A stretch of DNA of 64,000 nucleotides. It comes from a virus (taxonomy: Duplodnaviria; Caudoviricetes). Where the stretch lies: the IMG/VR virus record IMGVR_UViG_3300034061_004620. One strand, 5' to 3'. The translations under genes were made by a program, and so were the position numbers. Shown in pieces: positions 4,164 through 32,095 of the stretch. Positions within the stretch are counted from its first letter, which is position 1. Each line of letters begins with the position of its first letter. Below the pieces are notes generated by a model. It saw only the letters and a program-made list of their open reading frames with translations. It did no database searches and had not been told where the DNA came from.

Positions 4164-5081
4164 ATGGAAAAACAATACTTAGATGCATTGCGTGATGTTT
4201 TAGAAACAGGAACACGCAGAGACGATCGTACGAGCGTAGGCACCGTATCAAAATTTGGTATGCAGCAACGTTATGACTTATCAAAAGGATTCCCGGCAGT
4301 AACTACAAAGAAACTGGCCTGGAAAGCTGTTATTGGTGAGTTACTTTGGATGATAGAAGGCAGCGGTGACGAACGCAGACTTGCTGAGATAACACACGGT
4401 ACGAAAGATGGTGTTGTAACTATTTGGACGCCTAATGCACTGGCGCCTTATTGGAAGCCCAAAGCCAAATATGAAGGTGATTTGGGTCGTGTGTATGGTG
4501 TACAATGGCGTCGTTGGCGCAGTATTAAAGAACGAGAAGCAAATGGATCATTTACTGACAGCTTTGGCTCTACTTATCGAAGAGTAGGTAATGCAGTTGA
4601 AGTAAAAGAAATTGACCAACTCAAGAATTTGATTGAAGGTATACGGGCGGACCCACACGGACGCAGGCATATATTATCTGCATGGAATCCAGGCGAATTA
4701 GATGCCATGGCTCTGCCCCCGTGTCATTGCTTTGCACAGTTTTATGTAGCAGACGGACGGTTGTCATGTCAGATGTATCAGAGATCCTGCGATATGTTTT
4801 TAGGCGTTCCCTTTAACATCGCGAGCTATAGTCTACTCACACACATGATAGCACAGGTGTGTGATCTGCAAGTAGGTGAGTTCGTTCACGTACTCGGCGA
4901 TGCTCATGTATATCTGAATCATGTAGAGCAGGTAAAAGAACAATTGCAACGTGAACCATTACCTGCTCCAACTCTTTGGTTAAACCCTGCTATTAAAGAT
5001 ATAACTAAGTTTAGTATCGATGATATTCAATTACATGATTATCGTCACCATGATCCTATAAAGGCTACAATGGCAGTATGA
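4164..5081 (+). CDS. thyA: Thymidylate synthase (ThyA type)
   Basis: RDDRTSVGT, FPAVTTKK, DLGRVYGVQWR, ALPPCH (catalytic Cys), YQRSCDMFLGVPFNIASY, GDAHVYLNH. Confidence 0.98.
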   Translation: MEKQYLDALRDVLETGTRRDDRTSVGTVSKFGMQQRYDLSKGFPAVTTKKLAWKAVIGELLWMIEGSGDERRLAEITHGTKDGVVTIWTPNALAPYWKPKAKYEGDLGRVYGVQWRRWRSIKEREANGSFTDSFGSTYRRVGNAVEVKEIDQLKNLIEGIRADPHGRRHILSAWNPGELDAMALPPCHCFAQFYVADGRLSCQMYQRSCDMFLGVPFNIASYSLLTHMIAQVCDLQVGEFVHVLGDAHVYLNHVEQVKEQLQREPLPAPTLWLNPAIKDITKFSIDDIQLHDYRHHDPIKATMAV

Positions 5082-6592
5082 AAATATTACTTATCGGAAA
5101 CGAAACCAGAGATACAGACTTACGTGCAAGTATTTTAGCAAAAAACTTAAAGTATGAAAAAAATGGCCTATTAGCAATGCCATTACCTGACACAATTGAT
5201 GACGGCATTTATCACACGAGTGTAGTAGACATCCACCCTGGTGATCTAATTAAGGTTTCTAATAATTTTGATCGTATAATTTTGGCCGATCAAAACATTA
5301 AAAGTTACCCACATTATAAAACTTTTGTTACTACAGTGCGATTTTTTATAGACTTAGAAAATAATAAAACCAATGTTACATTTAAAGAAAATAAAAATGT
5401 ACAAAGTTATTTACAATGGAAAAAATTTTTAACGCATAACAAAAGTTTTTGTTTTTATCCTTTTCTTGCTTTAATTGACAACTGGCAGGATACTACAATT
5501 TGCCCAAAAAACTTTGTTCCTATTGATAAAATTGGCCACACGTCTGAATGGCAAACAAATAAAAAATATATAGAAATAAGAAACAACATGGCACAGGGAA
5601 TACAAATGCCAGAAAGATGTCATGACTGCTACGATAGAGAAAATGAAGGACAGGAAAGTACGCGACAATTTGAAACACTGGAATGGACTCAACGCTTAGG
5701 CCTAAATTCAGTAGATGATTTTTTTAAAATTACTAATCCAGTTTATTATGAAATTAGACCAAGTTCAACTTGTAATATAATGTGCAGAACATGCGACGAT
5801 TTTCATAGCACACTTATAGAAAAAGAATGGAAAAAGATTAACATACCTTTAGTTACAGAAAAGTTAGGAAATTACAGAAATACTTCTTTTGATATTATAA
5901 ATTTTGATACGTTGGAGAGAATTTATGTAGGCGGCGGAGAGCCAACAATAATGCCAGAATTTTATTCTTTTTTACAAAAGTGTATAGCACAAGGTAAGAC
6001 ATCATTCGAATTAAACATTGGCACAAATGGTATGTTTTTTTCAAAAAAATTAATTAGCCTATTGGATAATTTTACTGATGTTTGTTTTTCATTTAGTTAC
6101 GATGGTTATGGTAAAGTAAATGACTACATTAGATGGAAATCAGATTTTGATACAATTGTCCAAAATGGACGTATGCTTAGAGATAGAGGACACAAAATAG
6201 CATTACAAACTGTATTTTCTATGTACAGTATTACAAGAATACACGAGGTTTTTGAATTTTTTGATCAAGAATATTTAGGGAGCGGTCTATTAGTACAGGT
6301 AGCCGGTGGATTTGATAATATATTCATGCCGTATAATCACCCACGCCCTGATCTTGTAGTGCAGTCAATGATACAATGTCAAAAAACCAAAATATATTAC
6401 ATGAATGGTAGGTCAATAAAATCAATGGTTGATCTTTTACTTGATTACTACTCTAATCCCAATTACAAATGTGATCCGGTGATGTTAGAAAAATTTTACA
6501 GTATCAATGATAAACTTGATATTTCAAGAAAATCAAATCTAATAGATTATATACCCGAATTAGCCGAAGCAAGACACTTGTATAACTTATGA
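5078..6592 (+). CDS. Radical SAM protein with an N-terminal twitch-like Fe-S domain and an extra ~115-aa N-terminal domain
   Basis: FCFYPF...TICP...RCHDC, then CNIMCRTC (CxxxCxxC), GGGEP, IGTNG, SYDG. Confidence 0.9.
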   Translation: MKILLIGNETRDTDLRASILAKNLKYEKNGLLAMPLPDTIDDGIYHTSVVDIHPGDLIKVSNNFDRIILADQNIKSYPHYKTFVTTVRFFIDLENNKTNVTFKENKNVQSYLQWKKFLTHNKSFCFYPFLALIDNWQDTTICPKNFVPIDKIGHTSEWQTNKKYIEIRNNMAQGIQMPERCHDCYDRENEGQESTRQFETLEWTQRLGLNSVDDFFKITNPVYYEIRPSSTCNIMCRTCDDFHSTLIEKEWKKINIPLVTEKLGNYRNTSFDIINFDTLERIYVGGGEPTIMPEFYSFLQKCIAQGKTSFELNIGTNGMFFSKKLISLLDNFTDVCFSFSYDGYGKVNDYIRWKSDFDTIVQNGRMLRDRGHKIALQTVFSMYSITRIHEVFEFFDQEYLGSGLLVQVAGGFDNIFMPYNHPRPDLVVQSMIQCQKTKIYYMNGRSIKSMVDLLLDYYSNPNYKCDPVMLEKFYSINDKLDISRKSNLIDYIPELAEARHLYNL

Positions 6593-6816
6593 TTTTCCAT
6601 GAGTTCAACTTAGGTGATGTTGAAGATCCTGAAATATACGCTGCCACACCACTTTGTGATTGGCAAAACTCTGAACAGGGTAGGTGGATCATGCAACATT
6701 GCAGAGATCCAAAATACAAGGTATCTGTGGATCCATACAACTATGGTTATAAGGTCATTGTGTATGGAGATCTTACACCCGAAGCCGCAACCTATTTTAC
6801 CTTAAAGTATAAATGA
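6589..6816 (+). CDS. Small hypothetical protein
   Basis: ATGA-coupled on both sides; GDVEDPEIYAA motif. Confidence 0.75.
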   Translation: MIFHEFNLGDVEDPEIYAATPLCDWQNSEQGRWIMQHCRDPKYKVSVDPYNYGYKVIVYGDLTPEAATYFTLKYK

Positions 6817-7781
6817 AAACATTTATCACCGGCGGAGCTGGTTTTATTGGACACAATGTTATTAAACTCTTACGAGATAAGGGTGTAGATTGTTACAGCG
6901 TAGATTCAAGAACAGACTACGGCTTCATACCCAACGATGAACTTGATTACTTGATTAAAGGTAGAATCAATAGATCAGGCTTTGCACCTTTGTTTGTGGA
7001 CATCAGAAATACAGAAACAATTAAAAGTCATATTGGTATTTTTGATATTAAATGTATCGTACATCTTGCCAGTTTTCCAAGACAAAAGGTAGTACAACAA
7101 GATCCTGTAACTGCAAGCCAGGTCATGGTAACTGGATTGATAAACTTATTGGAAGCTGCTGTCACATATAAAGTTCGCAGATTTGTGTATATCAGTTCAA
7201 GCATGGTGTATGGCGACTTTGAATCTGGTATTACTGAAGATGCTGTTTGTCAACCACAAGGTCAGTACGGTATAATGAAGTACATGGGAGAAAAATTAGT
7301 CGAGGATTATTGTAAACGACACAACATAGAATATGTTATCATTCGTCCAAGTGCAGTATACGGCGAATGGGATGTTGATGATCGTGTTGTGAGTAAATTC
7401 GCATTAGCTGCACTCAGAAATCAAGAATTAGTTGTACGTGGTGCCAATGAAAGACTTGATTTTACTCATGTACATGATACTGCACAAGGCATTGTGGATG
7501 CTATTTTAAGCCCCAATGCTACTAATAAAATTTACAATATTACTCGTAGTAATCCTGACACAATAACATTAGCAGATGCTGCAAAACTAATAACCAATAT
7601 TGTTGGTAAAGGATCAATTAGAATTGCTGATAGAGATTTAAGTTTTCCCAGTCGTGGTAGATTAAGTATTCAACGAGCACAACAAGATTTTAATTTTACC
7701 CCGACAATTGATGTCAAAAAAGGATTTGAAAAATACATTGATTGGTTACAATCTTCTTCATATTGGCAACATAAGTTATGA
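6813..7781 (+). CDS. NAD-dependent NDP-sugar epimerase/dehydratase (extended SDR)
   Basis: TGGAGFIG, VHLAS, SSSMVYG, YGIMK (YxxxK), IRPSAVYG, DFTHVHD. Confidence 0.93.
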   Translation: MKTFITGGAGFIGHNVIKLLRDKGVDCYSVDSRTDYGFIPNDELDYLIKGRINRSGFAPLFVDIRNTETIKSHIGIFDIKCIVHLASFPRQKVVQQDPVTASQVMVTGLINLLEAAVTYKVRRFVYISSSMVYGDFESGITEDAVCQPQGQYGIMKYMGEKLVEDYCKRHNIEYVIIRPSAVYGEWDVDDRVVSKFALAALRNQELVVRGANERLDFTHVHDTAQGIVDAILSPNATNKIYNITRSNPDTITLADAAKLITNIVGKGSIRIADRDLSFPSRGRLSIQRAQQDFNFTPTIDVKKGFEKYIDWLQSSSYWQHKL

Positions 7782-8878
7782 ATACCATTCCGTTCTTTGG
7801 TATCAATAGACAGTACAAAAATCTACGAGAAGAAATTTTAGATATTACTGATAGAATATATTCCACAGGACGAGTTCTTGACGGCGAATACACAAAACAT
7901 TTTGAAGAAAAAATAGCACGCCGGTGCAATAGAGCTTATGCTGTAGCTGTCAATTCAGGTACACAGGCTTTGATATTTGCTCAATTGGCAGCAATGCATC
8001 AACCTCCTTATTCTGTTCTTATTCCTACCATAAGTTTTGCTGCAACGATCAATAGTGTATTAATGAACGGTTACACACCGGTATTTTGTGATATAGATTA
8101 CAAAGGATTAATGGATCTAAGTTCTTATCAATACAAACTTGACCGAAGTGTAGGTGCAGTAATGTATGTAAATTTGTTCGGAAATTGCATTGATTGGGAT
8201 CAATTTAGAATCCAAACTGAATTTTTTAATGATGGTTTACTTATTATCGAAGATGCTGCTCAAAGCTTTGGTGCTTGTTACAAAGACATACCCAGCGGCA
8301 AGATGGGTGACATTAGTGTATTAAGTTTTGATCCAACAAAGAATTTAAATAACTACGGATCGGGAGGCATGATACTCACTGACGATTTTAAAATTTACGA
8401 AAGAGTTATGTCTCTAAGAGACAACGGAAAACCTCTACACGATCAACCAGGTACTAATAGTAAAATGAACGAAGCTGATTGTGCCCAAATGTTAATTAAA
8501 CTTCAACATTTTGATGCATGGCAACGACGTAGAACAGAGATAGCTAACTATTACATAGACAATCTATATCAATACGTAGATGTACTTGTTCCTAACGAAC
8601 ATGTTACACATGCCTGGCACAAGTTTGTAATTAGGACACACGAAAGAACTGCATTGCAATCAAGACTGGCTCAAAACGGAATTGAAACTAAAATTCATTA
8701 TCAAGATGCCTTATACGATTTAGAAGTAGGCTTTCATTATGTAGATCACGTAGAAGATAGATTTACAGAAACAGCCTCGTTTACCAGAGAATGTCTTAGT
8801 TTGCCTATCTATCCAGAATTGTCAGACTGCGAAGTAGAAACCATTGTAGATTGCATCAAACATTATATAGATTCTTAA
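7778..8878 (+). CDS. DegT/DnrJ/EryC1/StrS family PLP-dependent sugar aminotransferase
   Basis: AVAVNSGTQAL, FAATINSV, IEDAAQSFG, SFDPTKNL (PLP lysine), LSLPIYPEL. Confidence 0.95.
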   Translation: MNTIPFFGINRQYKNLREEILDITDRIYSTGRVLDGEYTKHFEEKIARRCNRAYAVAVNSGTQALIFAQLAAMHQPPYSVLIPTISFAATINSVLMNGYTPVFCDIDYKGLMDLSSYQYKLDRSVGAVMYVNLFGNCIDWDQFRIQTEFFNDGLLIIEDAAQSFGACYKDIPSGKMGDISVLSFDPTKNLNNYGSGGMILTDDFKIYERVMSLRDNGKPLHDQPGTNSKMNEADCAQMLIKLQHFDAWQRRRTEIANYYIDNLYQYVDVLVPNEHVTHAWHKFVIRTHERTALQSRLAQNGIETKIHYQDALYDLEVGFHYVDHVEDRFTETASFTRECLSLPIYPELSDCEVETIVDCIKHYIDS

Positions 8879-10703
8879 ATCTTTGAGACAACCAAGGCCA
8901 ATCAAAACTTAACATTAGTTTATTATTGTTACCATTTACTTCATTGTAATAATTAATAGCGTCTTTCGCTCCACGTAAACACCACTCTGCGTTATCTCCA
9001 TTGGCTACGGTTAACCAAGTGTCTAATCTATGTTCTGTTTCAATGGTAGGACTTGTTTCCATGAACAATTTTAATTTTAAAACTTCTCTGAATGCTGTGC
9101 GCCAGGTCATCCAGGGATCGGCATTAAAATAGGCAATAGCACTGAGCTCAGGTATTACTGTGTGTTTTTGACTAAGTGTAAAATCTAATCCGGATTCTAA
9201 AGTTTCCAACACCAGTCTTTTATTATAAGCAATAACACCCATATGCCCGTATTCGAGTCCGTTTAAGCAATTACGACTATGGAATATATAATGTTTAGGT
9301 TCTTGCCAATAATCAGGTTGCCAACCAAAGTCAAAACTGCCCAACACTTCTAATTTTGCAAATACAGCGAAAAACCAGTCCGTGGTACTTGCCGAGGCGG
9401 CTGCATGATATGCAGCCGTTCGTCCGTTTACATTCTGTACTCTTTTTAAACGTTGTGTAGAATGTTTATGGTTCATGGTTACCAAAAGATGATCATACCA
9501 ACGTTCAGCATCAGGTTCACCGTTACTTATATAAACAATATCTAATTCTTTATCTGTATATGCATTTTCTTTACGTCGTAAAACGTATGGATAATCATAC
9601 AATTGTGTTTTAATATGCGCTTGAGCTTCTCTTGGTATTACACTTGTACTACCTGATATATTTAACGCTTCGGCAATACGATCCTTAGGGTGCCACATGC
9701 ACGGAGGAGTAAATACTGGATCAGTTGGAAGCGTATCTAATTTAAAAATAGCGTATGGAAAATTAAATTTGTACTCTTGTACAGTCGGAACTAAACTATC
9801 TTGCCGGTATTCTATTATTGGTACATCAATTGAAACAATTTGATCTGTGCAGTAATGAATCACATTAAACCAATCTAATAATTCTAATTCATACAATTGT
9901 GTTCGCAATGACGGCACATGAACATAAAAAGTATCGCCTCTTTTTTGAGGATACCATTTGTTACAAGATGTAGGAAACACATGTATCATTTCTCGTTGCT
10001 CGGGAGCAGGGTGCCAAGTAAAATCAAATTTTGAGTAATCGCAAAAGCTACTCGTAATCCAAACAAATTCTGTCGTGGCTAAATTTGCAATACGCTTGAA
10101 CACGTTTAAATGGCTATCAACATACCTGGTACTTTTTGCGTCAGGGTGTTGTTGTTGTATTCTGGCAAATTGTTCTGCACTTCCGTCGTTTAAGAAATCC
10201 ATATAAAAGATTCGTGTAGCACCATTACGTATGTGTTGTGCATTTACATATTTGATGCCAGCAGTACCTGGATATACAGGGCCTCCGTCCCGTTGCCACA
10301 ATGTGGGAAAATGGTATTCATAATCTTCTTCTAATTCGTCTGGATGCCAACTGTAATCAAATTTACTGTCGTCTATATTTGCAGGAACTATCCATTTTGC
10401 TTTCTCAACACAGCGTGTGACTTTTTGTTCTGTTCTAAAATGCCATTCTTTATTTTGCACGGTATCTTTATTAGCAAAGTAAGCACCTCCGGAACGTTGC
10501 CATTGTGTACCAAAACAATGCGTTTGATGGGCTTCCCAAGGAGCAGGACGCCAACTAAAATCAAAATTAGTGTAATCGTTACCGCCATAAATATACCAGT
10601 AATATCGAGTTCTACTTTTTTCCGCAGCATCCTCTAAACTACTTGCATATTTCTCAAATTCAAATTTATCGGGCTTAGAGCCGTAATAAAAAACATCAAA
10701 CAT
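8856..10703 (-). CDS. Multi-module glycosyltransferase-like protein (repeated degenerate GT-A-like units)
   Basis: Four FD(F/Y)xWxP motifs. The C-terminal unit aligns by eye with the 27904-28851 protein (DIVYISNGEP, AAYHAAA, NGLEYGHMGV, WRTAFRE). Confidence 0.6.
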   Translation of the reverse strand: MFDVFYYGSKPDKFEFEKYASSLEDAAEKSRTRYYWYIYGGNDYTNFDFSWRPAPWEAHQTHCFGTQWQRSGGAYFANKDTVQNKEWHFRTEQKVTRCVEKAKWIVPANIDDSKFDYSWHPDELEEDYEYHFPTLWQRDGGPVYPGTAGIKYVNAQHIRNGATRIFYMDFLNDGSAEQFARIQQQHPDAKSTRYVDSHLNVFKRIANLATTEFVWITSSFCDYSKFDFTWHPAPEQREMIHVFPTSCNKWYPQKRGDTFYVHVPSLRTQLYELELLDWFNVIHYCTDQIVSIDVPIIEYRQDSLVPTVQEYKFNFPYAIFKLDTLPTDPVFTPPCMWHPKDRIAEALNISGSTSVIPREAQAHIKTQLYDYPYVLRRKENAYTDKELDIVYISNGEPDAERWYDHLLVTMNHKHSTQRLKRVQNVNGRTAAYHAAASASTTDWFFAVFAKLEVLGSFDFGWQPDYWQEPKHYIFHSRNCLNGLEYGHMGVIAYNKRLVLETLESGLDFTLSQKHTVIPELSAIAYFNADPWMTWRTAFREVLKLKLFMETSPTIETEHRLDTWLTVANGDNAEWCLRGAKDAINYYNEVNGNNNKLMLSFDWPWLSQRFKNLYNV

Positions 10704-11826
10704 GTATAATATTCACAGTCATTACGAAAATATATTTTCTTATCTAAAAACATTGGTACCACAACCCAGACTCGTTCATCTGCATCCATTTGGATCAACT
10801 AAAATTGATAATGCCGAGTCAATTAATATTGGGGGATACGGCCCGCTATTTTTTTGTTACGATCAAGAACCAATTATACCAAATTTTAACAGAGAACTAT
10901 TTCAACATGTACGTAATTATAAAGATGATTCAGGTCAACCAAGATCAACTATAGTACTTAACACAGAAAAAAATAGTCAAACTAAAAATACATTCTTAGA
11001 AGAATTTAATTTTGCCGATTGTTATTATTTTTTCCATGCATTTGCCGCGGCAGATTGGTATAGAGGCTATCAATATTGTACAGATTTAATACCAATAGAA
11101 CAACGAAAAATAAAGAAAAAATACATTTCTTTTAATCGTATTACCGGCGGTGCAAGAATGTATCGAACTATTTTAGTATCTGAACTACAAAGGCATGACA
11201 TTTTAAAATTTGGTAATGTAAGCTTTAGTCATAATTGCCCTGAATATGGATCCTATAAAGATTTTTTAACAGACGAAAATTACGTATATCAATTTAATCC
11301 TGGTTATTTAGATGAGGTTAAAGGAATATTAGACAATATAAATTTTCCGTTACGTATTGATAACTTTGGCTTAGAAACAATTCCAAATAACAGTCAGACA
11401 CTAAGTTGTATTCCGGCCTGTATGGAAAGTTTTGTTTATTTGGTTACCGAGACTTGTTTTTTTGATAAAAAATTGCATCTAACTGAAAAAGTTTTTAAAC
11501 CAATAGTGAGTAAGCAACCGTTTTTGTTGTTAGGTTGTGCTAATAATCTACAGTATTTAAAAAGTTACGGATTTAAGACTTTTAACAGATGGTGGGATGA
11601 AAATTATGATGCTATCGAAGATCCATTGACTCGTTTAAAGGTAGTTGTAAATATTCTTAAGGGTATTTGTGAAAAATCAAACGATGAACTCGAACAGATG
11701 CTGTTAGATATGCAGGAAGTTCTTGAATATAATTACAACTGGTTTTACAGCAAAGAATTTTTAGATTTAGTATGGAATGAACTTACAACTAATCTTCAAG
11801 CGGCAATTGCACAATTAAAACGTTAG
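10702..11826 (+). CDS. Putative glycosyltransferase (GT10/GT-B-like C-terminal motif)
   Basis: LVTETCF...LTEKVFKPIVSKQPFLLLG...GFKTF...DENYD resembles the GT10 EN..ITEK..P..G motif. Paralog of 19219-20154. Confidence 0.55.
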   Translation: MYNIHSHYENIFSYLKTLVPQPRLVHLHPFGSTKIDNAESINIGGYGPLFFCYDQEPIIPNFNRELFQHVRNYKDDSGQPRSTIVLNTEKNSQTKNTFLEEFNFADCYYFFHAFAAADWYRGYQYCTDLIPIEQRKIKKKYISFNRITGGARMYRTILVSELQRHDILKFGNVSFSHNCPEYGSYKDFLTDENYVYQFNPGYLDEVKGILDNINFPLRIDNFGLETIPNNSQTLSCIPACMESFVYLVTETCFFDKKLHLTEKVFKPIVSKQPFLLLGCANNLQYLKSYGFKTFNRWWDENYDAIEDPLTRLKVVVNILKGICEKSNDELEQMLLDMQEVLEYNYNWFYSKEFLDLVWNELTTNLQAAIAQLKR

Positions 11827-12232
11827 ACTTTTTCAAAAAATCAATCCCGGCAGTGTCTCGATAACTTTGACTGTAATAGACATCGGTTATCCCGCTTTGA
11901 TAAATTAATTTAGCACATTCCAAACAGGGACTGTGAGTAACAAACAAACTGGCGCCTTCTCCGCTTTCATTTGATCGTGCCAGTTTTGCGATTGCATTGG
12001 TTTCGGCATGCAAGACTTCAGGCTTTGTCGTAAGTCCTACTATTTCTCCATTGGGCCACTTACATTCGTCTTCACAGTCGTTGTCCCATCCCGCTGGCAT
12101 ACCGTTATAGCCAATACTAATTATTCTATCGTGTTTGGCAATGATACAACCTACCTTCAATCTGCGAGCATGACTAAGAGCTGCAAAAGTCTGAGCAGTT
12201 TGCATAAACGCACGTTTAAATTTCTCTTTCAT
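11789..12232 (-). CDS. cd: dCMP deaminase
   Basis: IGYNGMP, HAETNAI (HxE), SPCLECAK (PCxxC). Confidence 0.95.
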   Translation of the reverse strand: MKEKFKRAFMQTAQTFAALSHARRLKVGCIIAKHDRIISIGYNGMPAGWDNDCEDECKWPNGEIVGLTTKPEVLHAETNAIAKLARSNESGEGASLFVTHSPCLECAKLIYQSGITDVYYSQSYRDTAGIDFLKKSNVLIVQLPLED

Positions 12233-12804
12233 TCCGCACCCATTTGCTTTCTAATAGCAGTGGCCGATATTGCCTGCGTGGCATCATCAAAGGTTTCTTG
12301 TTCAATCAAATAGCCAACATCGCGACCATATGTTATATTCACAATGTTAGGTACTACAATAATTTCGTACATACCTTTATATTCTGGATCTAAATCTGCA
12401 CGAATATAATTTTTAACTTGTTCAAGATCGAATGGATTACTATGATTCCAGCCTTGGCAATCTCTAATCATAATACATACTTGTCCAGTTTTCTTTATTG
12501 CACGGTCAAATAACGCACGATGCCCGGCGTGCCAAGGTTGCCAACGGCCTAACATTTGCACTGTGGGTTTACGCCAATCAAATATTGGCGTATTTGTTAT
12601 TTTAGCTGTATTGTTCATAATTGAGAGATATCCTTCACAATATACATTCCATTTTTCTATATTATTTTCTATAGTCACTTTATCTTTAACAGGCACCTGG
12701 ATATCTAAATGTTCAACCAAGTATTCAGTTTCATTTTCGAATACACGCCATACTTGGCCACTGTTGTTATGCTGATGATTAAATCTTATGTGATATTTGT
12801 TCAT
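12229..12804 (-). CDS. HxGH (cytidylyltransferase-like) nucleotidyltransferase fused to a ~70-aa N-terminal domain
   Basis: LGRWQPWHAGH; ISATAIR (SxTxIR-type C-terminal motif). Confidence 0.8.
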   Translation of the reverse strand: MNKYHIRFNHQHNNSGQVWRVFENETEYLVEHLDIQVPVKDKVTIENNIEKWNVYCEGYLSIMNNTAKITNTPIFDWRKPTVQMLGRWQPWHAGHRALFDRAIKKTGQVCIMIRDCQGWNHSNPFDLEQVKNYIRADLDPEYKGMYEIIVVPNIVNITYGRDVGYLIEQETFDDATQAISATAIRKQMGAE

Positions 12805-13198
12805 AGATAGTTTTTGCCCATTTACCTGCGTCTTGTTCAGTTACTCTGATATCATATTTGTCGGGAGCCACAAATATTTGATTTGTATCTTTGTATCTAC
12901 CTTCTGTAATTGTATCTACCCAAATTAAAAAATGTGGGTCGTATATATCTCGCATTTCTTTAAGCGGACATACAAAGTCAGCTATTATAAAATCACGATT
13001 AGATGTGTCTGCAATTTCTCGCATTCTTTTACTTTGTCGTAGTCTACCCGCTTCACTGAAATCCCAATCATTGAATTTCCTACGTATTTCATCAGCATTT
13101 AACCATAATGCATCAGGAGAAAAATAATTTAATAAATTTATAGCAAGGGTGGTTTTACCTGCGCCTGGCAGACCCATTATAAGTATACGTTTTGTCAT
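12779..13198 (-). CDS. Adenylylsulfate kinase (CysC)-like P-loop kinase
   Basis: GLPGAGKTT, WLNADEIR, DFSEAGR, IADFVCP parallel the CysC motifs LDGDxxR, GFSxxDR and ISP. Confidence 0.8.
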   Translation of the reverse strand: MTKRILIMGLPGAGKTTLAINLLNYFSPDALWLNADEIRRKFNDWDFSEAGRLRQSKRMREIADTSNRDFIIADFVCPLKEMRDIYDPHFLIWVDTITEGRYKDTNQIFVAPDKYDIRVTEQDAGKWAKTIYEQISHKI

Positions 13199-15295: not shown

Positions 15296-15393
15296 TTATA
15301 GATAAATGGATCTCGTTTACGTAATTCACGTAATTTTCTTCGATAACGTATTTCTAATACAATTCTATTCCAAATGTTTTTTAACCATGTCAT
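15292..15393 (-). CDS. 33-aa basic peptide; not in the ORF track
   Basis: MTWLKNIWNRIVLEIRYRRKLRELRKRDPFIYK*. It fills the gap between the two SGNH genes and its TGA overlaps the next ATG. Confidence 0.75.
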   Translation of the reverse strand: MTWLKNIWNRIVLEIRYRRKLRELRKRDPFIYK

Positions 15394-22674: not shown

Positions 22675-24026
22675 AAACTATTGTACCAATCTGATAAATC
22701 TTGAAAAGTTGACACAAAATCCTTGTCTCTACGGATATCATATTGGGAATAAAATTTTTTAAAATCTTTTTGTAAAATTTCTTGTTCGGCTGCACCCAAA
22801 TGCGGAGTTTTTACTACGTCTAAATAATCTATTAGTCTTTGTAACTGATTTAATTCCATTTCGTGAATTAATTCATTTTTTTGATTTTGCATCATCCAAT
22901 CTTGCAATTTATTTTTATATTTTGTTCTGAGTTCATCTGGTAAAACCAATGGACTCTGAAAACTGGGGAATCTTAATATATTTAATGTGAAAAATGGATA
23001 ATTTTTTCCATAACACATTTTCCACTGAACAATTTGATCTAAAAAATCAGTCAAACTTTCTAAACTTAGAGCATTTATTGTACACATAATGTGTAAGCCA
23101 CGTAACTTGTAGTTGGCAAAATTATCACATATCAGATCTATACTATTAATCCAATCGTTCCAAACCAATCCGTCTCTAATATACTCTGCATGAGCTCCGA
23201 CACTTTCATTACTTGTGTATAAGTCAATGGGTGCGTCCACACTTTGAAATAAACGATCGATATCAACTTGTGTTCCTAAATTAGAATTAATCGCAAGTCG
23301 TGTTTGCGATCGTCCTTTGTTGGCCTTAAACCAATCAAGTAATTGCCAGGTGTATCCTGACATTAGAGGCTCTCCACCGGTAATCCTTAATTCTGTTAGG
23401 GTTTTATGGAGGTCTGATTCCCACCATTGGAAGAAGGCATCGATGTAGGGGTTATTTTCACCAAATTTAAAAAGCTGCGAACTGTCATGGCTATGAGTAA
23501 AATGGTTCCTGCCGTCAGACACCAGATCCATGTAGGGTCCGTTATTATTGATGTCTTTAACCCAAGTACTGCTGAATGCAGGATTGCAATAAGAGCAAGC
23601 AAACTGACAAGTACGATCAAAACTGATTTCAAGAGTGCGAAGATTGACATCTTCTGTAAAATTTGATTTGAATGCATTATCTAAATCCTCATCTGTAAAC
23701 AACACAGTTTTGTACACACGATCGCTTATGTTATCACGACCGATGTCCTCAATTTTCCAACAATATTCACAACCGGCCGGCCTTTCGCCTTGTTGCATCT
23801 GACGGCGTTCTTCTTTTTTCTTTGCAGTATTGTGTAATGTCCGTGGATTAATTTTGGCTTCTTCTATATCAACTTTGTGTGGCAATGGGTGATGACAACT
23901 TGTAGTCATACCTGACCCTAACCAAATAGTGGCATTATACCATTTTGCGCCGCAGAATGATTCAGACTTGATATCAATTACTCTGCGTCTATATTCTAAA
24001 TCTGTTTCGTTATTAATTTTGGGCAT
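22671..24026 (-). CDS. Radical SAM protein with N-terminal twitch-like domain (SCHHP variant)
   Basis: FCGAKW...TSCHHP...GCEYCW; CQFACSYC; TGGEP; INSN. Confidence 0.92.
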   Translation of the reverse strand: MPKINNETDLEYRRRVIDIKSESFCGAKWYNATIWLGSGMTTSCHHPLPHKVDIEEAKINPRTLHNTAKKKEERRQMQQGERPAGCEYCWKIEDIGRDNISDRVYKTVLFTDEDLDNAFKSNFTEDVNLRTLEISFDRTCQFACSYCNPAFSSTWVKDINNNGPYMDLVSDGRNHFTHSHDSSQLFKFGENNPYIDAFFQWWESDLHKTLTELRITGGEPLMSGYTWQLLDWFKANKGRSQTRLAINSNLGTQVDIDRLFQSVDAPIDLYTSNESVGAHAEYIRDGLVWNDWINSIDLICDNFANYKLRGLHIMCTINALSLESLTDFLDQIVQWKMCYGKNYPFFTLNILRFPSFQSPLVLPDELRTKYKNKLQDWMMQNQKNELIHEMELNQLQRLIDYLDVVKTPHLGAAEQEILQKDFKKFYSQYDIRRDKDFVSTFQDLSDWYNSL

Positions 24027-25395
24027 GATATCGGCATTCTTCCCAAAATTCTTTCATTTCCGGGAATGTATTTAAAAAGTTTGTATCTCTTCGTTTGTCG
24101 TGCTCGTTAAAGAATCTAAAAAAATCAGCACGTTGCATTATAACATATTCTTGATCTAATTTGCTACCTTCTTGCATCCAATCTACCACTCGTTGCATTC
24201 TTTGCACTTCGTAATCTTTAAATCCTTGAAATGGTTTATCTTCAGTTTCTAAATTGGCCTGCATCCAATTGACCACATCTTGTAATCGTTTTGCATATAC
24301 AGGTGGTAATATCTGTAAGCTTTGCCAGGTAGGTTGTCTGAGTATGGGTGTATCAAACCAAACTCGTTGATATGTTGTACTGTGTAACCTTCGTAAAGCA
24401 AGAACAGTTTCTAATTGTCTTTTTAAACCTAACACACTTAGATTATTCATAGTAATAATGAATGTTAGACTGTTACGATAAGGAATGTGTCTTAAGAAAT
24501 AATCAACTCTTGCTAAAACTCTTTTATATTCCATTCCATGTCTGATATATTCGGCATGTTCGGCTATTCCGGTATCCAAACTTACATACTGCATGAAATG
24601 TTCAATATTTGTGTTACATAATTGGCTTACATAGCCAAAGTATTGTTCCCATAACTTTTCATCTACACTAAAGTTACTGGTCACATCAATATGCAAATCA
24701 GGTTTAGGAAAGGCCAACACATAGTCAAACACTCGATATGTATTACGATCCATTAGGGGTTCGCCGCCGGTCATTCTAAAATGTTTTAGTCGTGGATATA
24801 AACTGGGCCACCACTCCCAGAATGCATCAACATAAGGGTTATCTTCTCGAACAGGAATAGGTCGTCGGCGACCGGTAAAATGGGAAACATCATTATGAGT
24901 AGTGCTGGTGGGATATCCTCCATAACGTCTAATTTCATCATCCCAGCTACTACTAAACTGAGGACTACAATAGGAACACTTGAGATTGCAAGCATGATTA
25001 AAATTGACTTCCACATAGGAAGGAATAGCATCTTCATCGCCTGATGAGTTCGTGATGGTTTCAAAATGCTCACTTGCCCACGGTTCACCTGATCGGTAAT
25101 GTCTATCACTTAAATTCCCCAAATCTTCTTGTGTCCAACAATAACTGCATTCCTGTGGACGTTCGTTGCGTAGCATAATTTTACGCTGTTCTTTTTTGTA
25201 TGGTGTGTTATGTAACGCACCGGGATTGTCTTTTAATAGTGTGGCGTCTATTTCATGTAATGGTGGATGATAGCAACTGTTTGTTAGACCTGTGGGTAAG
25301 TGTAGACTTACTTGTTGCCATTTAGCAAGGCAAAGACTATTACCAAGTCTGTCTTTCATATTTTCAGCAAGATTTAAAAAATCACTTTTAACCAT
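24013..25395 (-). CDS. Radical SAM protein with N-terminal twitch-like domain (SCYHP variant)
   Basis: LCLAKW...NSCYHP...ECSYCW; CNLKCSYC; TGGEP; VTSN; VSLD. Confidence 0.92.
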   Translation of the reverse strand: MVKSDFLNLAENMKDRLGNSLCLAKWQQVSLHLPTGLTNSCYHPPLHEIDATLLKDNPGALHNTPYKKEQRKIMLRNERPQECSYCWTQEDLGNLSDRHYRSGEPWASEHFETITNSSGDEDAIPSYVEVNFNHACNLKCSYCSPQFSSSWDDEIRRYGGYPTSTTHNDVSHFTGRRRPIPVREDNPYVDAFWEWWPSLYPRLKHFRMTGGEPLMDRNTYRVFDYVLAFPKPDLHIDVTSNFSVDEKLWEQYFGYVSQLCNTNIEHFMQYVSLDTGIAEHAEYIRHGMEYKRVLARVDYFLRHIPYRNSLTFIITMNNLSVLGLKRQLETVLALRRLHSTTYQRVWFDTPILRQPTWQSLQILPPVYAKRLQDVVNWMQANLETEDKPFQGFKDYEVQRMQRVVDWMQEGSKLDQEYVIMQRADFFRFFNEHDKRRDTNFLNTFPEMKEFWEECRYHAQN

Positions 25396-27868: not shown

Positions 27869-27903
27869 TATAATCCTATTTTGGTTATATTTTTTAGAAA
27901 ATA

Positions 27904-28851
27904 TTACCAACCTTCTATTCTACGTATGACATCAATTTCTGTCATCATTATTTCACTATTACGCTGCCCAATACTGTAGTGATGTTTAAAAAATTCACTT
28001 TGCTTGGGTGTGTAAGTTACTATAGGTAAACCCAATCTGTTTGTCAATGCACTTTCTATTCTTTCGCATCCTTCCTGGGGATCTTCAGTGCTAAAACTGG
28101 TCCATAGTTTTTCAAGCATATCAAAGTCCTGTACATGATGATGATCCCATCCTTCAAGCATAATCATGTATGTGCCTAATCTTGCTCCATACATTGCCCA
28201 GTAACCATTTTCAACGTCTGCACCCACTGAGTGCCAAATACATAAATGATCATAGTTTCTTTTATTCACCCCATCTTCAAATTCTTGTAAAGTGGGCTTG
28301 TGTCCTCTGTTAAGACACATCTTTACACCTTCACGGAATCCGGCTCGCCATGCTTGTTTGGCACTGCCATTGGGATATGTTGTCGAATAACAATTATGCA
28401 TAGCCACATACTTTGGGTCAAAACAAAATTCAACAGCAGTTTCTTCATCGCCCAGGCTGGCCTCATGAGTACGCATACGATTTACAAAGTCCTTGGTCCA
28501 ACAACTAACACCACCGTTGCCATACCTTAACCCATTTATAACATTACGTGCTTTCCATCTAAAAACGTGGTCATGATTCCGTTCATCCAGCGATAATTGT
28601 AAGTTAAAAAATTCTGGATCCGGAATATTGTCTCCATCAACGAGAACAAAACGGTCTGTGTCTGACGCAGCGGCGGCTGCTTTATGCGCTGCATCAGACC
28701 CTTTAACTCCATCAACTCTCTTTGCCCATGGCACCATGTTTTGAATTTGGATCCAAAATTCTTCTTTTTTAGGTTCATCATAGGTTAAGAAAATACAATC
28801 TAAATCTGCTATGTCAACAATTTTAGCCGCTGTAGAATTCTGTGCTGTCAT
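27904..28851 (-). CDS. GT-A fold glycosyltransferase-like protein
   Basis: LDCIFLTYDEP, GVKGSDAAH, FVLVDGDN (DxD), NGLRYGNGGV, WRAGFRE. Confidence 0.65.
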   Translation of the reverse strand: MTAQNSTAAKIVDIADLDCIFLTYDEPKKEEFWIQIQNMVPWAKRVDGVKGSDAAHKAAAAASDTDRFVLVDGDNIPDPEFFNLQLSLDERNHDHVFRWKARNVINGLRYGNGGVSCWTKDFVNRMRTHEASLGDEETAVEFCFDPKYVAMHNCYSTTYPNGSAKQAWRAGFREGVKMCLNRGHKPTLQEFEDGVNKRNYDHLCIWHSVGADVENGYWAMYGARLGTYMIMLEGWDHHHVQDFDMLEKLWTSFSTEDPQEGCERIESALTNRLGLPIVTYTPKQSEFFKHHYSIGQRNSEIMMTEIDVIRRIEGW

Positions 28852-29170
28852 ATGTTTCTTTTTCTTCTAAAAGTAATGCCGCATGATTTTTTACTACTTG
28901 ATAACCGCTTGTGCTTGGATGTAACTGAACTCTATATCCAGGATCGTGTACAATTTTTCTCAGTTTACCATTTATTACTCGATCATATCTAAAATAATTG
29001 TCGTAAGTTTCTTTATCAACTACAATATAATTAGAATTGACAGGATGATCAATCATTGTACAACTCACAATAGATCCTTTACTGTCGTAGTGTATTCTAT
29101 ATTCTATTTTTTGTTGTGGAATATCACGAATCAAGCCAATGGCTGCAATCAACTCAGGAGGTATGTTCAT
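28823..29170 (-). CDS. Hypothetical protein
   Basis: 115-aa ORF directly after a TAAATA element. Confidence 0.7.
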   Translation of the reverse strand: MNIPPELIAAIGLIRDIPQQKIEYRIHYDSKGSIVSCTMIDHPVNSNYIVVDKETYDNYFRYDRVINGKLRKIVHDPGYRVQLHPSTSGYQVVKNHAALLLEEKETYDSTEFYSG

Positions 29171-29987
29171 ATCTATTTATTATGCTGTCAGTTGGCCAAT
29201 GTTTTACATGGTAGTGTACAGGATTATATTGATTGAGATTATTAATCCTTACAATTGGCGGATCTACTTCACATACAACCAATTCGTTCCAATCAACCTG
29301 TCCGGGCCAATTTTGTACATGAGTTTTCATATGTACAAAATTAAAAAAATCTAAACTGGGAACGGTGCAATTTTCTACCCCCGTTATTTTTGCTGCCAGT
29401 GCATAGATTACATCAGTGCTGGGACGATCTTCTCTGCAGTTTTTTAACACATTATCTTTTAAATAATCATAATGCTGATAAAGTTTTTTAGCTGTGTTAA
29501 AAAAAAGTGCGGCTTCTTGTGAGTATCTGTAGTACATCATACCATTATAGATATTTGGCAAATCATTATCAGACCAAAATTTTCTATATTCCGTGTCAAC
29601 AACAACTGTGTCCTCAATATTACGACAATTTGTACTTAAAACAATATTACGCAATCTGAGTGCATGCCACCAGTGTTCAATATTTCGAGTGATAATAAGA
29701 TCTGATTCAAGTTTGATTGTTTCCTTAAATGGAGTAAGCCAAAATAAATCTGGTTCTACTTCCATCGGCCATTCGCTATCTCTACCTTCCACTACATAAT
29801 CAAATACTTTTTCAATTTTAGAGGTTACATTTTTCTTGGTCTTAAAATCAACCACTACAGCCGTTTTGGCATTAGGCATAGTCGTCTTGATACTCATTGC
29901 CTGTAGATAAGCCAATTCTAAATAATCTACTTTATTTGAACTGTAGGCTAAAGTTAAAAATCCTTGTTGTTCTTTGTGATTAAACAT
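29154..29987 (-). CDS. GT8-like nucleotide-diphospho-sugar transferase (degenerate ESD in place of DxD)
   Basis: GFLTLA, DYLELAY, TPFKETIKLESDL, YNGMMYYR, STDVIYA, HMK. Confidence 0.6.
   Translation of the reverse strand: MFNHKEQQGFLTLAYSSNKVDYLELAYLQAMSIKTTMPNAKTAVVVDFKTKKNVTSKIEKVFDYVVEGRDSEWPMEVEPDLFWLTPFKETIKLESDLIITRNIEHWWHALRLRNIVLSTNCRNIEDTVVVDTEYRKFWSDNDLPNIYNGMMYYRYSQEAALFFNTAKKLYQHYDYLKDNVLKNCREDRPSTDVIYALAAKITGVENCTVPSLDFFNFVHMKTHVQNWPGQVDWNELVVCEVDPPIVRINNLNQYNPVHYHVKHWPTDSIINRYEHTS
29174..29180 (-). promoter_or_regulatory. Late promoter core ATAAATA, 3 nt before an ATG
   Basis: The minus strand reads ATAAATA GAT ATG. Confidence 0.5.
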
Positions 29988-30813
29988 TATTAATCAGTTG
30001 TAAATAATTTTCAGTTAACAAATATTGCTTGTGCATTACGTGTATATTATGTTTCGGAATCATGTAAGCTTTGTCGGGAGTTCGTATTATTAACATGTTA
30101 TCCTTTATGTTTATTGCAGTGATTTCTTCGGATATAGTAAGCATGTGCCACGGAATGAGATTTCGTTTGTCAATACTATACCCATTAAGTATAATATTTG
30201 CCATTGCAAATGCAAAGTCGTTTCTGTATTGTGCGCCATCAACATTAAATAAACTTCTATAATAGCCCCAGTTTCTTTGTATACGCCCAACCAGATTAAA
30301 AAATAGTTTGCTTTTGGGTGTCTTTCTAAATAAAACTACTGTAGCCCAAACATACGGTAGTCCAATATTTCCCATTCGCGCAGGCATTGAATGTTTAAAA
30401 TCGTTACTCTTGCCCTGTATCAAATAATCATACGTCTGATCAAATAGTTTTAGCAATGAGGTATCTAATACCACATAATCTGTATCAATCATGAGAGTAT
30501 TATCATAAGGCGTATGTTGATAAACACTATGCCTATGAAAATTTTTCCATTGCACCTGTTTTTTTGTAACAACATCTGTGCGTTGATTCTGCCCGGTATA
30601 ATCCAATCGTATCACATGATCGTAATTAAACTTTGGAGAAGAAGTTTTATCTGTTATTAAAGTCACAGGTAACTTTAATAATTTAGAAACAAGTAACGCA
30701 CATCTATCTGCTATAGCAACGTAATCAACTGAATCCGTATTAAAAGCAAATAACACAACGCCTTTAGATTCTTCGCTGTTTCTTGAGATATTCATGTTGT
30801 TGATGCCACTCAT
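29980..30813 (-). CDS. GT8-like nucleotide-diphospho-sugar transferase
   Basis: GVVLFAFN, TPYDNTLMIDTDY (DxD), WATVVLF, RNDFAF, HVMHK. Paralog of 29154-29987. Confidence 0.65.
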   Translation of the reverse strand: MSGINNMNISRNSEESKGVVLFAFNTDSVDYVAIADRCALLVSKLLKLPVTLITDKTSSPKFNYDHVIRLDYTGQNQRTDVVTKKQVQWKNFHRHSVYQHTPYDNTLMIDTDYVVLDTSLLKLFDQTYDYLIQGKSNDFKHSMPARMGNIGLPYVWATVVLFRKTPKSKLFFNLVGRIQRNWGYYRSLFNVDGAQYRNDFAFAMANIILNGYSIDKRNLIPWHMLTISEEITAINIKDNMLIIRTPDKAYMIPKHNIHVMHKQYLLTENYLQLINNV

Positions 30814-31123: not shown

Positions 31124-31149
31124 AATAAAGTCAAATAATTAGTTGCTAA

Positions 31150-32082: not shown

Positions 32083-32095
32083 GTTTTAATTCCTA

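Follow-up and report, generated by a model that had tools for sequence, protein, structure and literature searches.

A 64,000-nucleotide stretch of the caudoviricete record IMGVR_UViG_3300034061_004620 (hereafter the window) carries, just behind the tail-fibre genes of a widespread, uncultured freshwater jumbo phage, about 26 kb of genes for soluble sugar-transferring enzymes and seven radical SAM enzymes. What would such an enzyme set make, and what would its product decorate? A first-pass annotation had placed a radical SAM/glycan tailoring cluster of about 30 tightly overlapping genes at 5078-30813, and had inferred a cytoplasmic pathway attaching a heavily decorated sugar to virion proteins, or alternatively to phage DNA or a small molecule. 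Genes are named here by their lower coordinate.

Gene content of the cluster

We, first, investigated whether the cluster is real and intact. Between 5078 and 31078 lie 29 intact genes, and the observation made in the first-pass annotation is confirmed. The operon, however, starts at 31078, with the gene 30764, and not at 30813. Its core is a gapless 19.3-kb minus-strand operon (31078 to 11789) in which every junction overlaps. The features are collected in Table 1.

All seven radical SAM enzymes (5078, 17263, 20138, 21355, 22671, 24013 and 25830) have the CxxxCxxC motif. Six of them exceed the 170-bit cut-off of the NCBIfam family NF033640 (N_Twi_rSAM, twitch domain-containing radical SAM protein), with scores of 207-398 bits, and share a four-Cys N-terminal block, CxxxCxxC, GGEP and a C-terminal R...F..T(F)P(E) tail. 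We found no functional annotation or paper on this family, so membership gives no function. In the window it forms a conserved five-gene array plus a sixth copy that carries an extra N-terminal domain. The seventh enzyme, 25830, is B12-class-like, its best NCBIfam hits being B12 radical SAM methylases, all below their cut-offs. The closest solved relatives of the radical SAM core act on nucleotides or nucleoside sugars (viperin, 3e-7, MoaA and BlsE), while the twitch part weakly matches BtrN (E 0.0075).

The SDR 6813 (Epimerase, 1.5e-41), the DegT aminotransferase 7778 (1.5e-77) and both Pfam domains of the carbamoyltransferase 13195 pass curated thresholds. The dCMP deaminase, ThyA and DHFR are ordinary nucleotide-metabolism genes. 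The second SDR (18551) and the 2OG oxygenase (27242) rest on motifs only.

Six glycosyltransferase-like proteins form three paralogous pairs. None of them passes a Pfam threshold, and each assignment rests on profile or fold evidence. The proteins 29154 and 29980 are paralogs (hhalign 98.7%), and the 29154 family weakly matches glycogenin/GT8 (E 0.003). The proteins 19219 and 10702 are paralogs (99.7%) with a GT10-like TEK...KPI motif, for which the Atlas gives only a GT10 lead at 0.79. The third pair consists of 27904, with a predicted GT-A fold and a DGD motif, and the C-terminal domain of 8856, which is homologous to it (99.2%). The best PDB match of the 27904 model is A64R, the capsid glycosyltransferase of chlorella virus PBCV-1, though this match is weak (E 1.1e-3, TM 0.23-0.32); all 50 rows from VIA-align are GT-A enzymes or sugar-nucleotidyltransferases (Z 6-8). 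The glycosyltransferase families look virus-specific in the Atlas.

No protein has a convincing membrane span, and no export machinery, lipid-carrier, flippase, polymerase or initiating phosphoglycosyltransferase gene is present.

Table 1. Features of the cluster and of its upstream border in the window.
Coordinates	Strand	Feature	Supporting data
31150..33774	-	Adjacent structural genes: tail fibre 32096-33745 (Peptidase_G2 intramolecular-chaperone domain), Thr/Ser/Gly-rich fibre-like protein 31150-32082, late-like motif CATAAATA at 33767-33774	Immediately upstream of the operon in 38-48 loci
31106..31134	-	Sigma70-type promoter (TTGACT-17-TAAAAT) of the enzyme operon	See text
31082..31121	-	Hairpin plus U-tract, an intrinsic terminator for the upstream fibre transcript, with the -10 box in its loop	-13.9 kcal/mol, z -4.7
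30764..31078	-	First gene of the operon, conserved 104-aa protein of unknown role	Alignment; homologs in 48 loci
29154..30813	-	Two paralogous GT8-like (glycogenin-like) glycosyltransferase candidates, 29980-30813 and 29154-29987	See text
28823..29170	-	Conserved 115-aa Tyr-rich protein, function unknown	Alignment
27904..28851	-	Most conserved glycosyltransferase candidate, GT-A fold (from a model) with DGD motif	Alignment with 75% mean column identity
25388..27910	-	Low-GC (29%) island without a close counterpart in the fetched loci: unknown 149-aa protein, B12-class radical SAM (25830-27245), HxD...H protein (27242-27910)	2OG-oxygenase reading from the motif only
20138..25395	-	Four tandem N-terminal-twitch radical SAM genes: 24013, 22671, 21355 and 20138	NF033640, 283-398 bits; 59-93% identity to orthologs
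18551..20172	-	Variable pair: GT10-like protein (19219-20172) and short SDR-like Rossmann protein (18551-19222)	Present in only some relatives
17263..18558	-	Fifth conserved N-terminal-twitch radical SAM	NF033640, 279 bits
16140..17294	-	Conserved 384-aa protein of no known family, predicted cyclophilin-like barrel with a helical insert	Model pLDDT 85.8; no Foldseek match in the PDB; cyclophilins score Z 7-8.7; homologs in 64 loci
14642..16162	-	Two SGNH-type proteins (15365-16162 and 14642-15295) flanking a conserved 33-aa basic mini-ORF (15292-15393)	14642 hits DUF6071 and weakly GDSL; 15365 has the GDS...G..N...H blocks
13195..14706	-	NodU/TobZ-type carbamoyltransferase	Carbam_trans_N 5.6e-36, Carbam_trans_C 6.8e-47, both above Pfam cut-offs
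12229..13198	-	P-loop kinase (12779-13198, weakly APS-kinase-like) and HIGH-motif nucleotidyltransferase (12229-12804, NMNAT-like)	12229 has the GRWQPWHAGH and ISATKIR motifs; the pair also sits beside a distant array (locus L077)
11789..12232	-	dCMP deaminase, last gene of the operon	
8856..11826	.	Divergent pair: 615-aa protein whose C-terminal domain resembles 27904 (8856-10703, minus strand) and GT10-like paralog (10702-11826, plus strand)	See text
5078..8878	+	Accessory module: sixth N-terminal-twitch radical SAM with a 120-aa N-terminal extension, 75-aa ORF, SDR resembling a 4,6-dehydratase or epimerase, DegT aminotransferase	SDR and DegT homologs in only a few of the fetched loci

Conservation of the operon and of its radical SAM family

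We then asked whether these genes stay together in other phages. The core operon is kept in the same order in about 69 IMG/VR contigs. Its radical SAMs (60-78% identity) are better conserved than the baseplate wedge (50-53%). Compared with five large relatives, the radical SAMs are 59-80% and 27904 is 66-71% identical, whereas the baseplate wedge is 50-53% identical in four of the five. The B12 radical SAM, on the contrary, has no close homolog in any fetched locus, with only weak (about 25%) matches, in seven loci.

In a distant phage group (about 41% identity), arrays of the same radical SAM family sit among GT7 genes (two copies, one fused to a lectin-like domain), a GT10-like gene, a DegT fusion, a methyltransferase and a UDP-sugar dehydrogenase, so glycan chemistry is well supported. 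Against this, relatives carry 9-14 hits to the family, and many of them lie beside replication and repair genes, not sugar genes. Moreover, a Bacteriovoracaceae MAG has arrays of the family, and none of the ten flanking ORFs scanned was a glycosyltransferase.

Radical modification of proteins or peptides was considered here, with the twitch radical SAMs working like RiPP maturases that cross-link, epimerise or oxidise residues of virion proteins, the aromatic-rich fibre loop being one candidate target, and with the sugar enzymes as a separate module. SPASM/twitch enzymes are mostly peptide maturases, weak hits to YhhB, DynA and SkfB were obtained, 16140 has a predicted cyclophilin-like barrel, and the family is expanded in each genome. 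However, no RRE/PqqD-like recognition domain was detected in these proteins, no precursor-like peptide with a conserved core was found, and the arrays are embedded among sugar genes in two distant phage groups. We consider this the least likely of the readings.

Promoter and terminator ahead of the operon

The first-pass annotation had invoked a late-promoter motif in favour of a virion acceptor, an argument that is not supported. The late-like motif CATAAATA occurs on the minus strand only ahead of the fibre gene 32096 and the baseplate wedge, and no late-type motif precedes the operon. The operon has instead its own conserved sigma70-type promoter, nested inside the terminator that ends the fibre transcript. 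A comparable promoter lies in 27 of 39 distinct upstream regions in relatives, against 1.1% of random windows. A hairpin is present in 36 of 39 relatives, and in 21 the -10 box lies inside it. On this sequence evidence the operon is not co-transcribed with the fibre genes, and it ends in an early-type nucleotide gene, which counts against a virion acceptor.

The promoter type suggests expression before virion assembly and fits with host-envelope remodelling, in which the soluble GT8-like, GT10-like and GT-A enzymes and the decorating enzymes would modify host lipid A-core or carrier-linked surface glycans at the cytoplasmic face of the membrane, host export machinery then carrying the products outward. 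The result would block superinfection or stop progeny from being lost on cell debris, and no phage export genes would be needed. GT8 is the classical family of LPS core transferases, and published readings of sugar clusters in jumbo phages and pelagimyophages favour host-surface modification (PMC7824862; PMC7029224). Nevertheless, the core enzymes are conserved more strongly than the baseplate wedge across phages that probably infect different hosts, while surface-serotype genes normally vary. The glycosyltransferase families appear virus-specific rather than recently taken from hosts, and there is no initiating phosphoglycosyltransferase and no membrane protein. This reading is possible but unlikely.

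Early expression would also fit with DNA or nucleotide hypermodification, the radical SAMs and transferases building a glycan or other adduct on phage DNA or its precursors as a protection from host nucleases. The neighbouring genes are nucleotide-metabolism genes (cd, td, frd, a kinase and a nucleotidyltransferase), the nearest solved relatives of the radical SAM core act on nucleotides, and scattered copies of the family lie beside replication genes. However, ThyA passes the equivalog cut-offs for a true thymidylate synthase, and five large relatives that carry the operon have exactly one ThyA-family gene and no TGT/DpdA. So the operon does not depend on the known hydroxymethyl-pyrimidine or deazaguanine routes, and the usual routes to glycosylated DNA are not evident. 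The phage DNA glycan hypermodification clusters (Pyle et al. 2024, cited in PMC12619734) likewise contain several glycosyltransferases related to LPS and teichoic-acid enzymes, but they depend on 5-hydroxymethylcytosine, made either by a methyltransferase plus a TET-like oxygenase or by a hydroxymethylase. We regard this explanation as unlikely.

Comparison with aminoglycoside and deoxysugar tailoring

The parallel with aminoglycoside tailoring drawn in the first-pass annotation is a resemblance only. The enzyme classes match those of BtrN, TobZ, GenK/GenD1 and DesI/DesII, namely a twitch radical SAM, a Kae1/YrdC-type carbamoyltransferase, a B12 radical SAM, and a DegT aminotransferase next to a radical SAM. 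However, the twitch domain is N-terminal rather than C-terminal, the similarities are at superfamily level, and the DegT, SDR and B12 genes are not part of the conserved core. No inosose-synthase-like hit appeared among the scanned ORFs.

A diffusible glycosylated, carbamoylated secondary metabolite, resembling an aminoglycoside or a nucleoside antibiotic and used against competitors or to manipulate the host, was considered on this basis. The enzyme classes parallel BtrN, TobZ, GenK and BlsE, all the enzymes are soluble, and the plus-strand set of radical SAM, SDR and DegT recalls the DesI/DesII logic, DesI being a sub-threshold hit. On the other hand, no cyclitol synthase or other scaffold-forming enzyme was found among the scanned ORFs, there is no exporter and no self-resistance gene, and SDR and DegT homologs are found near the operon in few relatives. 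Moreover, six transferase-like proteins fit an oligosaccharide better than a small aglycone. This possibility is also unlikely.

A probable cytoplasmic glycan-tailoring system

The interpretation of the first-pass annotation is partly supported. A multi-step, cytoplasmic pathway for building and tailoring a glycan, without export machinery, is supported by the gene content, by the conserved order in about 69 contigs and by the recurrence of this radical SAM family among other sugar genes in distant phages. The virion acceptor remains plausible, as an inference. The analysis itself establishes the gene content, the intact motifs, the conservation, the operon architecture and the repeated association with sugar genes, whereas every reaction, the timing of expression and the acceptor are inferred.

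Radical SAM cassettes and GT8 glycosyltransferases have been recorded beside the tail-fibre genes, in the host-recognition cluster of pelagimyophages, which are aquatic T4-like myophages (PMC7029224). That paper only noted the genes and favoured LPS modification, and the lineage described here is a jumbo phage of about 340-370 kb with a fixed core operon and its own promoter. Virus-encoded soluble glycosyltransferases glycosylate structural proteins in the cytoplasm in mycobacteriophages (Freeman et al. 2023, cited in PMC12619734) and, for the capsid, in PBCV-1 (A64R). Those systems use one to a few transferases and are not known to use radical SAM enzymes, and no glycosylated virion protein is known for the present lineage.

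Our tentative explanation is that the phage encodes a cytoplasmic system that builds and tailors a glycan, most likely a heavily edited sugar decoration. In this view, the radical SAMs would act on nucleotide sugars or on the growing glycan, for example by oxidation, epimerisation, deoxygenation or decarboxylation, the glycosyltransferase-like proteins would assemble the chain, and the carbamoyltransferase and SGNH proteins would add or trim carbamoyl and acyl groups. As all the proteins are soluble and no lipid-carrier, flippase or polymerase gene is present, the acceptor is most likely soluble and not a lipid. A virion protein, such as the adjacent Thr/Ser-rich fibre-like protein 31150, is the acceptor we tentatively prefer; physical adjacency to fibre genes is weak evidence for it. 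The sigma70-type promoter would be insulated from late fibre transcription by the terminator that contains it, so the enzymes are probably made before the structural proteins.

In the same view, a conserved core, comprising five N-terminal-twitch radical SAM enzymes, the unknown protein 16140, the GT-A enzyme 27904, the carbamoyltransferase, the SGNH proteins, and the kinase and nucleotidyltransferase, would make a product whose central structure is fixed across the phage lineage, while variable accessory genes, i.e. the GT8-like and GT10-like paralogs, SDR plus DegT, and the island with the B12 radical SAM and the HxD...H protein, would diversify its periphery.

Genomic context of the cluster

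We, first, examined the setting of the window, which comes from an uncultured T4-like jumbo myophage. The minus strand, from about 63.7 kb down to 31 kb, encodes baseplate hub and wedge proteins, a 4,730-aa giant protein and tail fibres, and the baseplate wedge is about 36% identical to those of Atu_ph07, GAP32 and related jumbo phages. A megablast search of the cluster against 50,697 phage records found no match at the DNA level. Near-identical DNA is, however, present in lake and freshwater metagenomes from at least 16 studies, and 20 runs hold at least 65% of its sampled words. Among cultured phages, only Vibrio phages K566 and K567 and Ralstonia phage RsoM2USA carry distant homologs of the radical SAM, and their neighbouring genes are unannotated.

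Coordinates of the features of the window and of related records (genes and proteins are designated in the text by their first coordinate)
Coordinates	Strand	Feature
5078-31078		Region containing 29 intact genes
31078-11789		Operon in which every gene junction overlaps, ending with dCMP deaminase
6589-6816	+	75-aa ORF with no family hit, filling the only apparent gap in the plus-strand module, between the radical SAM 5078 and the SDR
8856-10703	-	615-aa protein with three copies of an FDF.W.P-type motif
12229-13198	-	Kinase and nucleotidyltransferase pair
15292-15393	-	Conserved 33-aa mini-ORF, translationally coupled between the two SGNH genes
25388-27910		2.5-kb island of 29% GC with a B12-class radical SAM, an HxD...H protein and an unknown 149-aa protein
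31080-31134	-	Sigma70-type promoter with its -10 box in the loop of a predicted intrinsic terminator
33767-33774	-	CATAAATA, candidate late-promoter core
39327-53519	-	Single 4,730-aa open reading frame between the baseplate wedge and the fibre genes
56836-56843	-	CATAAATA, candidate late-promoter core
L023:5430-6320		Related locus with an in-frame stop codon in a homolog of the window's glycosyltransferase-like proteins
C47: 61.8-64.5 kb and 89-95 kb		Two arrays of N-terminal-twitch radical SAM genes in a Bacteriovoracaceae MAG (L082 and G001 contig C47)

Radical SAM enzymes and other predicted enzymes

The cluster of radical SAM and sugar-tailoring genes beside the tail fibre genes that the first-pass annotation had observed was confirmed. 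All seven radical SAM proteins have the CxxxCxxC motif and the six twitch-type proteins have an invariant GGEP. Pfam Radical_SAM is above its cut-off for five of them, below it for 24013 and absent for 22671. The six twitch-type proteins exceed the curated 170-bit cut-off of NCBIfam NF033640 (N_Twi_rSAM, "twitch domain-containing radical SAM protein") with scores of 207, 279, 348, 398, 283 and 307 bits. Pfam places a SPASM-type match N-terminal to the core domain in three of them, and all share a conserved Cys-rich N-terminal block. The seventh protein, 25830, resembles B12-dependent radical SAM methylases but stays below every cut-off, with a B12-binding domain at E 0.0081 and, as best NCBIfam hits, a RiPP C-methyltransferase at 1.2e-15 and PhpK at 3.2e-15, both far below their cut-offs. 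This gene lies in the 29% GC island, which has no close counterpart in the 79 related loci and looks like a recent insertion into the conserved operon.

The SDR 6813, the DegT aminotransferase 7778 and the carbamoyltransferase 13195 pass Pfam thresholds. For 13195, Carbam_trans_N and Carbam_trans_C score 125 and 160 bits against cut-offs of 24 and 27, as in the NodU/CmcH/TobZ O-carbamoyltransferases, while the NodU equivalog is not reached (133 against 1000 bits). The protein 14642 hits DUF6071 and, below threshold, Lipase_GDSL_2, and 15365 shows the SGNH blocks in its family alignment. The mini-ORF lying between these two genes (MTWLKNIW...RKLRELRKRDPFIYK) encodes a peptide with a near-identical counterpart in at least one related locus, and its basic KL..LRK.DPF segment resembles the N-terminal motif of capsule polymerases. 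The nucleotidyltransferase 12229 carries the HxGH-type motif (GRWQPWHAGH) and an ISATKIR motif and is closest to NMN adenylyltransferases, and the kinase 12779 is a short P-loop protein with weak similarity to APS kinase. This pair could be a NadR-like NAD salvage module rather than a sugar-activating pair, and it also sits next to a distant radical SAM array, in the related locus L077.

The second SDR (18551; GxxGxxG, Y-x3-R) and the 2OG oxygenase (27242; HxD...H) of the first-pass annotation rest on motifs only. Single-sequence PDB searches supported neither assignment, and hhalign of the 18551 family against the SDR 6813 gave only 20% probability, although the catalytic regions aligned in register. 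The conserved protein 16140 returned no PDB sequence hit and no Foldseek match in the PDB, but only uncharacterised AlphaFold clusters and middling cyclophilin-like scores, so that no function was assigned to it. No protein has a convincing membrane span, which confirms, as had been annotated, that no flippase, polymerase or ABC exporter is present.

Glycosyltransferase-like proteins

None of the six glycosyltransferase-like proteins reaches a Pfam threshold, and they were then tested with family alignments built from related contigs, which showed that they fall into three paralogous pairs. The proteins 29154 and 29980 are related (hhalign 98.7%). The profile of the 29154 family weakly matches glycogenin, a GT8 enzyme, at E 0.003 over about 110 residues, with an ExD or DxD-like motif present, while 29980 is linked to GT8 only through its paralogy. 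In the same way, 19219 and 10702 are related (99.7%) and share a C-terminal TEK...KPI...PF...G...GF.TF...DESYD motif like that of GT10-type enzymes, in which the nucleotide-sugar-binding motif is E-x-T...TEK..KP. For this pair the Atlas gives only a GT10 lead at 0.79-0.80, and no PDB sequence hit was found.

The protein 27904 has 75% mean column identity and an invariant DGD (D72-G-D74). Its model (pLDDT 71.7) has a predicted GT-A fold, and the best PDB match is A64R, the PBCV-1 enzyme that glycosylates the capsid protein, although this match is weak (E 1.1e-3). All fifty rows of the VIA-align fold comparison are GT-A enzymes or sugar-nucleotidyltransferases, with Z 6-8 over residues 10-174. 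A nucleotidyltransferase activity is not excluded. The C-terminal domain of 8856 is homologous to 27904 (99.2%) but lacks the DGD at the aligned position. The repeated motif of 8856 suggests three degenerate tandem domains, of which only the last was shown to be homologous to 27904. PDB profile searches with 27904, 29980, 10702 and 8856 gave nothing usable. In the related loci L023, L047 and L048, single in-frame stop codons (TAA, TAA and TAG) interrupt otherwise well-aligned homologs of 27904 and 29980, which could be assembly errors, pseudogenes or recoding.

Conservation of the operon

A scan of IMG/VR with 21355 returned 79 loci, of which about 69 keep the same gene order, i.e. fibre 32096, 31150, 30764, 29980, 29154, 28823, 27904, then five radical SAMs with 19219 and 18551 present in some, followed by 16140, 15365, 14642, 13195, 12779, 12229 and 11789. 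In five large relatives (221-374 kb, three of them at least 97% complete), the radical SAMs are 59-80% and 27904 is 66-71% identical to those of the window, compared to only 50-53% for the baseplate wedge in four of the five and 61-76% for ThyA. The core is therefore under stronger constraint than this structural gene. In contrast, the GT8-like proteins, 28823, the SGNH proteins and 31150 are much more variable, and SDR and DegT homologs appear near the operon in only a few loci.

Association with sugar genes

One protein search returned more than 7,000 homologs of 21355. A distant phage group (about 41% identity, loci L070-L078) has arrays of eight or nine radical SAM genes, most of them matching the NF033640 family. 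These arrays sit among two GT7 genes, one fused to a lectin-like domain, a GT10-like gene, a DegT fusion, a SAM methyltransferase and a UDP-glucose/GDP-mannose dehydrogenase. The association with sugar genes thus holds in a second, distant phage group with a different set of partners. The closest solved relatives of the radical SAM core are viperin, MoaA and the cytosylglucuronate decarboxylase BlsE, which act on nucleotides or nucleoside sugars, and the twitch part weakly matches BtrN. In addition, the plus-strand trio of radical SAM, SDR and DegT recalls the DesI/DesII pairing in deoxysugar synthesis, DesI being a sub-threshold hit.

Nevertheless, other observations go against a simple picture. 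In the genomes G002-G006 (the records behind the related loci L010, L012, L040, L048 and L022), each related jumbo phage has 9-14 hits to the N-terminal-twitch family, of which five to seven are in the main array and the rest are scattered beside DNA polymerase B, a DnaB-like helicase, UvdE, nucleases, GroEL and an FAD oxidoreductase. The copies scattered through a relative's genome, examined for neighbouring sugar or structural genes, sit beside replication, repair and chaperone genes, which did not help to decide the substrate. In the Bacteriovoracaceae MAG, on a contig that may be cellular or viral, the second of the two arrays is flanked by a PrkA kinase, a pseudouridine synthase and a methyltransferase, and none of the ten ORFs scanned was a glycosyltransferase.

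A role as RiPP maturases was also considered for the radical SAM enzymes. No PqqD or RRE hit was obtained in any scanned protein, although the absence of a hit is weak evidence, and the only small conserved ORFs, of 33 aa and 75 aa, do not look like precursors.

Transcription of the operon

The first-pass annotation had invoked a late-promoter motif. The T4-type late promoter TATAAATA is depleted, occurring once in the window against 9 expected, inside a gene and on the wrong strand. The variant CATAAATA, with 3 sites in the window against 7.5 expected, occurs on the minus strand only upstream of the fibre gene 32096 and of the baseplate wedge, and is a candidate late-promoter core for this lineage.

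Between 31150 and 30764 lies a hairpin (-13.9 kcal/mol, z -4.7) followed by a U-tract, and overlapping it is a sigma70-type promoter, TTGACT-17-TAAAAT. In relatives, 27 of 39 distinct upstream regions carry such a promoter, against 1.1% of random windows, 36 carry a stable hairpin and in 21 the -10 box lies inside it. We infer that late fibre transcripts terminate at this point, while operon transcripts would start inside the hairpin, lack its 5' arm, and so read on. The operon is therefore a separately promoted unit, probably early or middle, which removes one argument for a virion acceptor but does not exclude one.

Candidate acceptors of the proposed glycan

The interpretation of the first-pass annotation was partly supported, as the sugar chemistry is backed by the associated genes whereas the late-promoter argument is not. 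The gene content, the conserved order, the identity values and the promoter and hairpin sequences are results of the analysis, while the reactions catalysed, the start and stop of transcription, its timing and the acceptor are inferred from them. Four candidate acceptors remain.

The known routes to glycosylated or deazaguanine DNA are unlikely partners for this operon. ThyA of the window passes the thymidylate synthase equivalog cut-offs, and the five relatives have one ThyA-family gene each and no TGT/DpdA hit. A 7-deazaguanine cluster reported elsewhere in this genome is therefore not a constant companion of the operon. A Tet_JBP search for a TET-like oxygenase found nothing, but its control gave no signal anywhere either.

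A host-envelope role is possible, as GT8-type enzymes can act at the cytoplasmic face and rely on host export, but it fits poorly with the very high conservation and with transferase families that look virus-specific. A small-molecule product lacks a scaffold synthase and an exporter: no cyclitol synthase (2-deoxy-scyllo-inosose synthase or inositol-phosphate synthase), as expected of an aminoglycoside/aminocyclitol biosynthetic cluster, was found in the Pfam or NCBIfam scans of the ORFs of 80 aa or more.

A virion protein remains our preferred acceptor, although this is held only tentatively, as is the full explanation to which it belongs. The enzymes are predicted to be soluble, the operon follows the fibre genes, including the Thr/Ser/Gly-rich protein 31150 (28% Ser plus Thr), and cytoplasmic glycosylation of structural proteins has precedents in PBCV-1 and in mycobacteriophages.

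A more speculative and rather unlikely hypothesis is that the five conserved N-terminal-twitch radical SAM enzymes, together with the protein 16140 of unknown family, carry out a fixed series of radical edits, which could be C-C or C-O cross-links, epimerisations, deoxygenations or decarboxylations, on a sugar chain covalently attached to a virion fibre or capsid protein. The result would be a non-canonical glycan coat that is a core trait of a globally distributed freshwater jumbo-phage lineage, and this would give the first function for family NF033640 and the first radical-SAM-edited protein glycan.

Comparison with known systems and significance

Virus-encoded glycan clusters are known, and radical SAM cassettes beside pelagimyophage fibre genes have been noted without any function being assigned (PMC7029224). 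Literature searches for a function of N-terminal-twitch radical SAM enzymes, and for jumbo-phage systems combining radical SAM enzymes and glycosyltransferases, found no characterisation, and no experimental work on NF033640 was found. Nothing was seen that ties the "moraphage" lineage (PMC12619734) to this phage, and that paper does not mention radical SAMs. The present analysis adds the promoter-in-terminator architecture and its frequency in relatives, the ranking of conservation against the baseplate wedge, the three transferase paralog pairs, the checks on known DNA-modification routes and the low-GC B12 radical SAM island.

Virus-encoded glycosylation is known, but only with a handful of ordinary transferases. 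Here, a lineage found in lake metagenomes keeps five or more radical SAM enzymes of a family with no known function, in one operon with six transferase-like proteins, and conserved more tightly than the baseplate. The promoter nested inside a terminator is also a compact, testable way of separating two transcription programmes. Identifying the product would assign chemistry to a large orphan enzyme family, would show whether tailed phages wear chemically edited glycan coats, and would supply new radical carbohydrate chemistry for enzymology.
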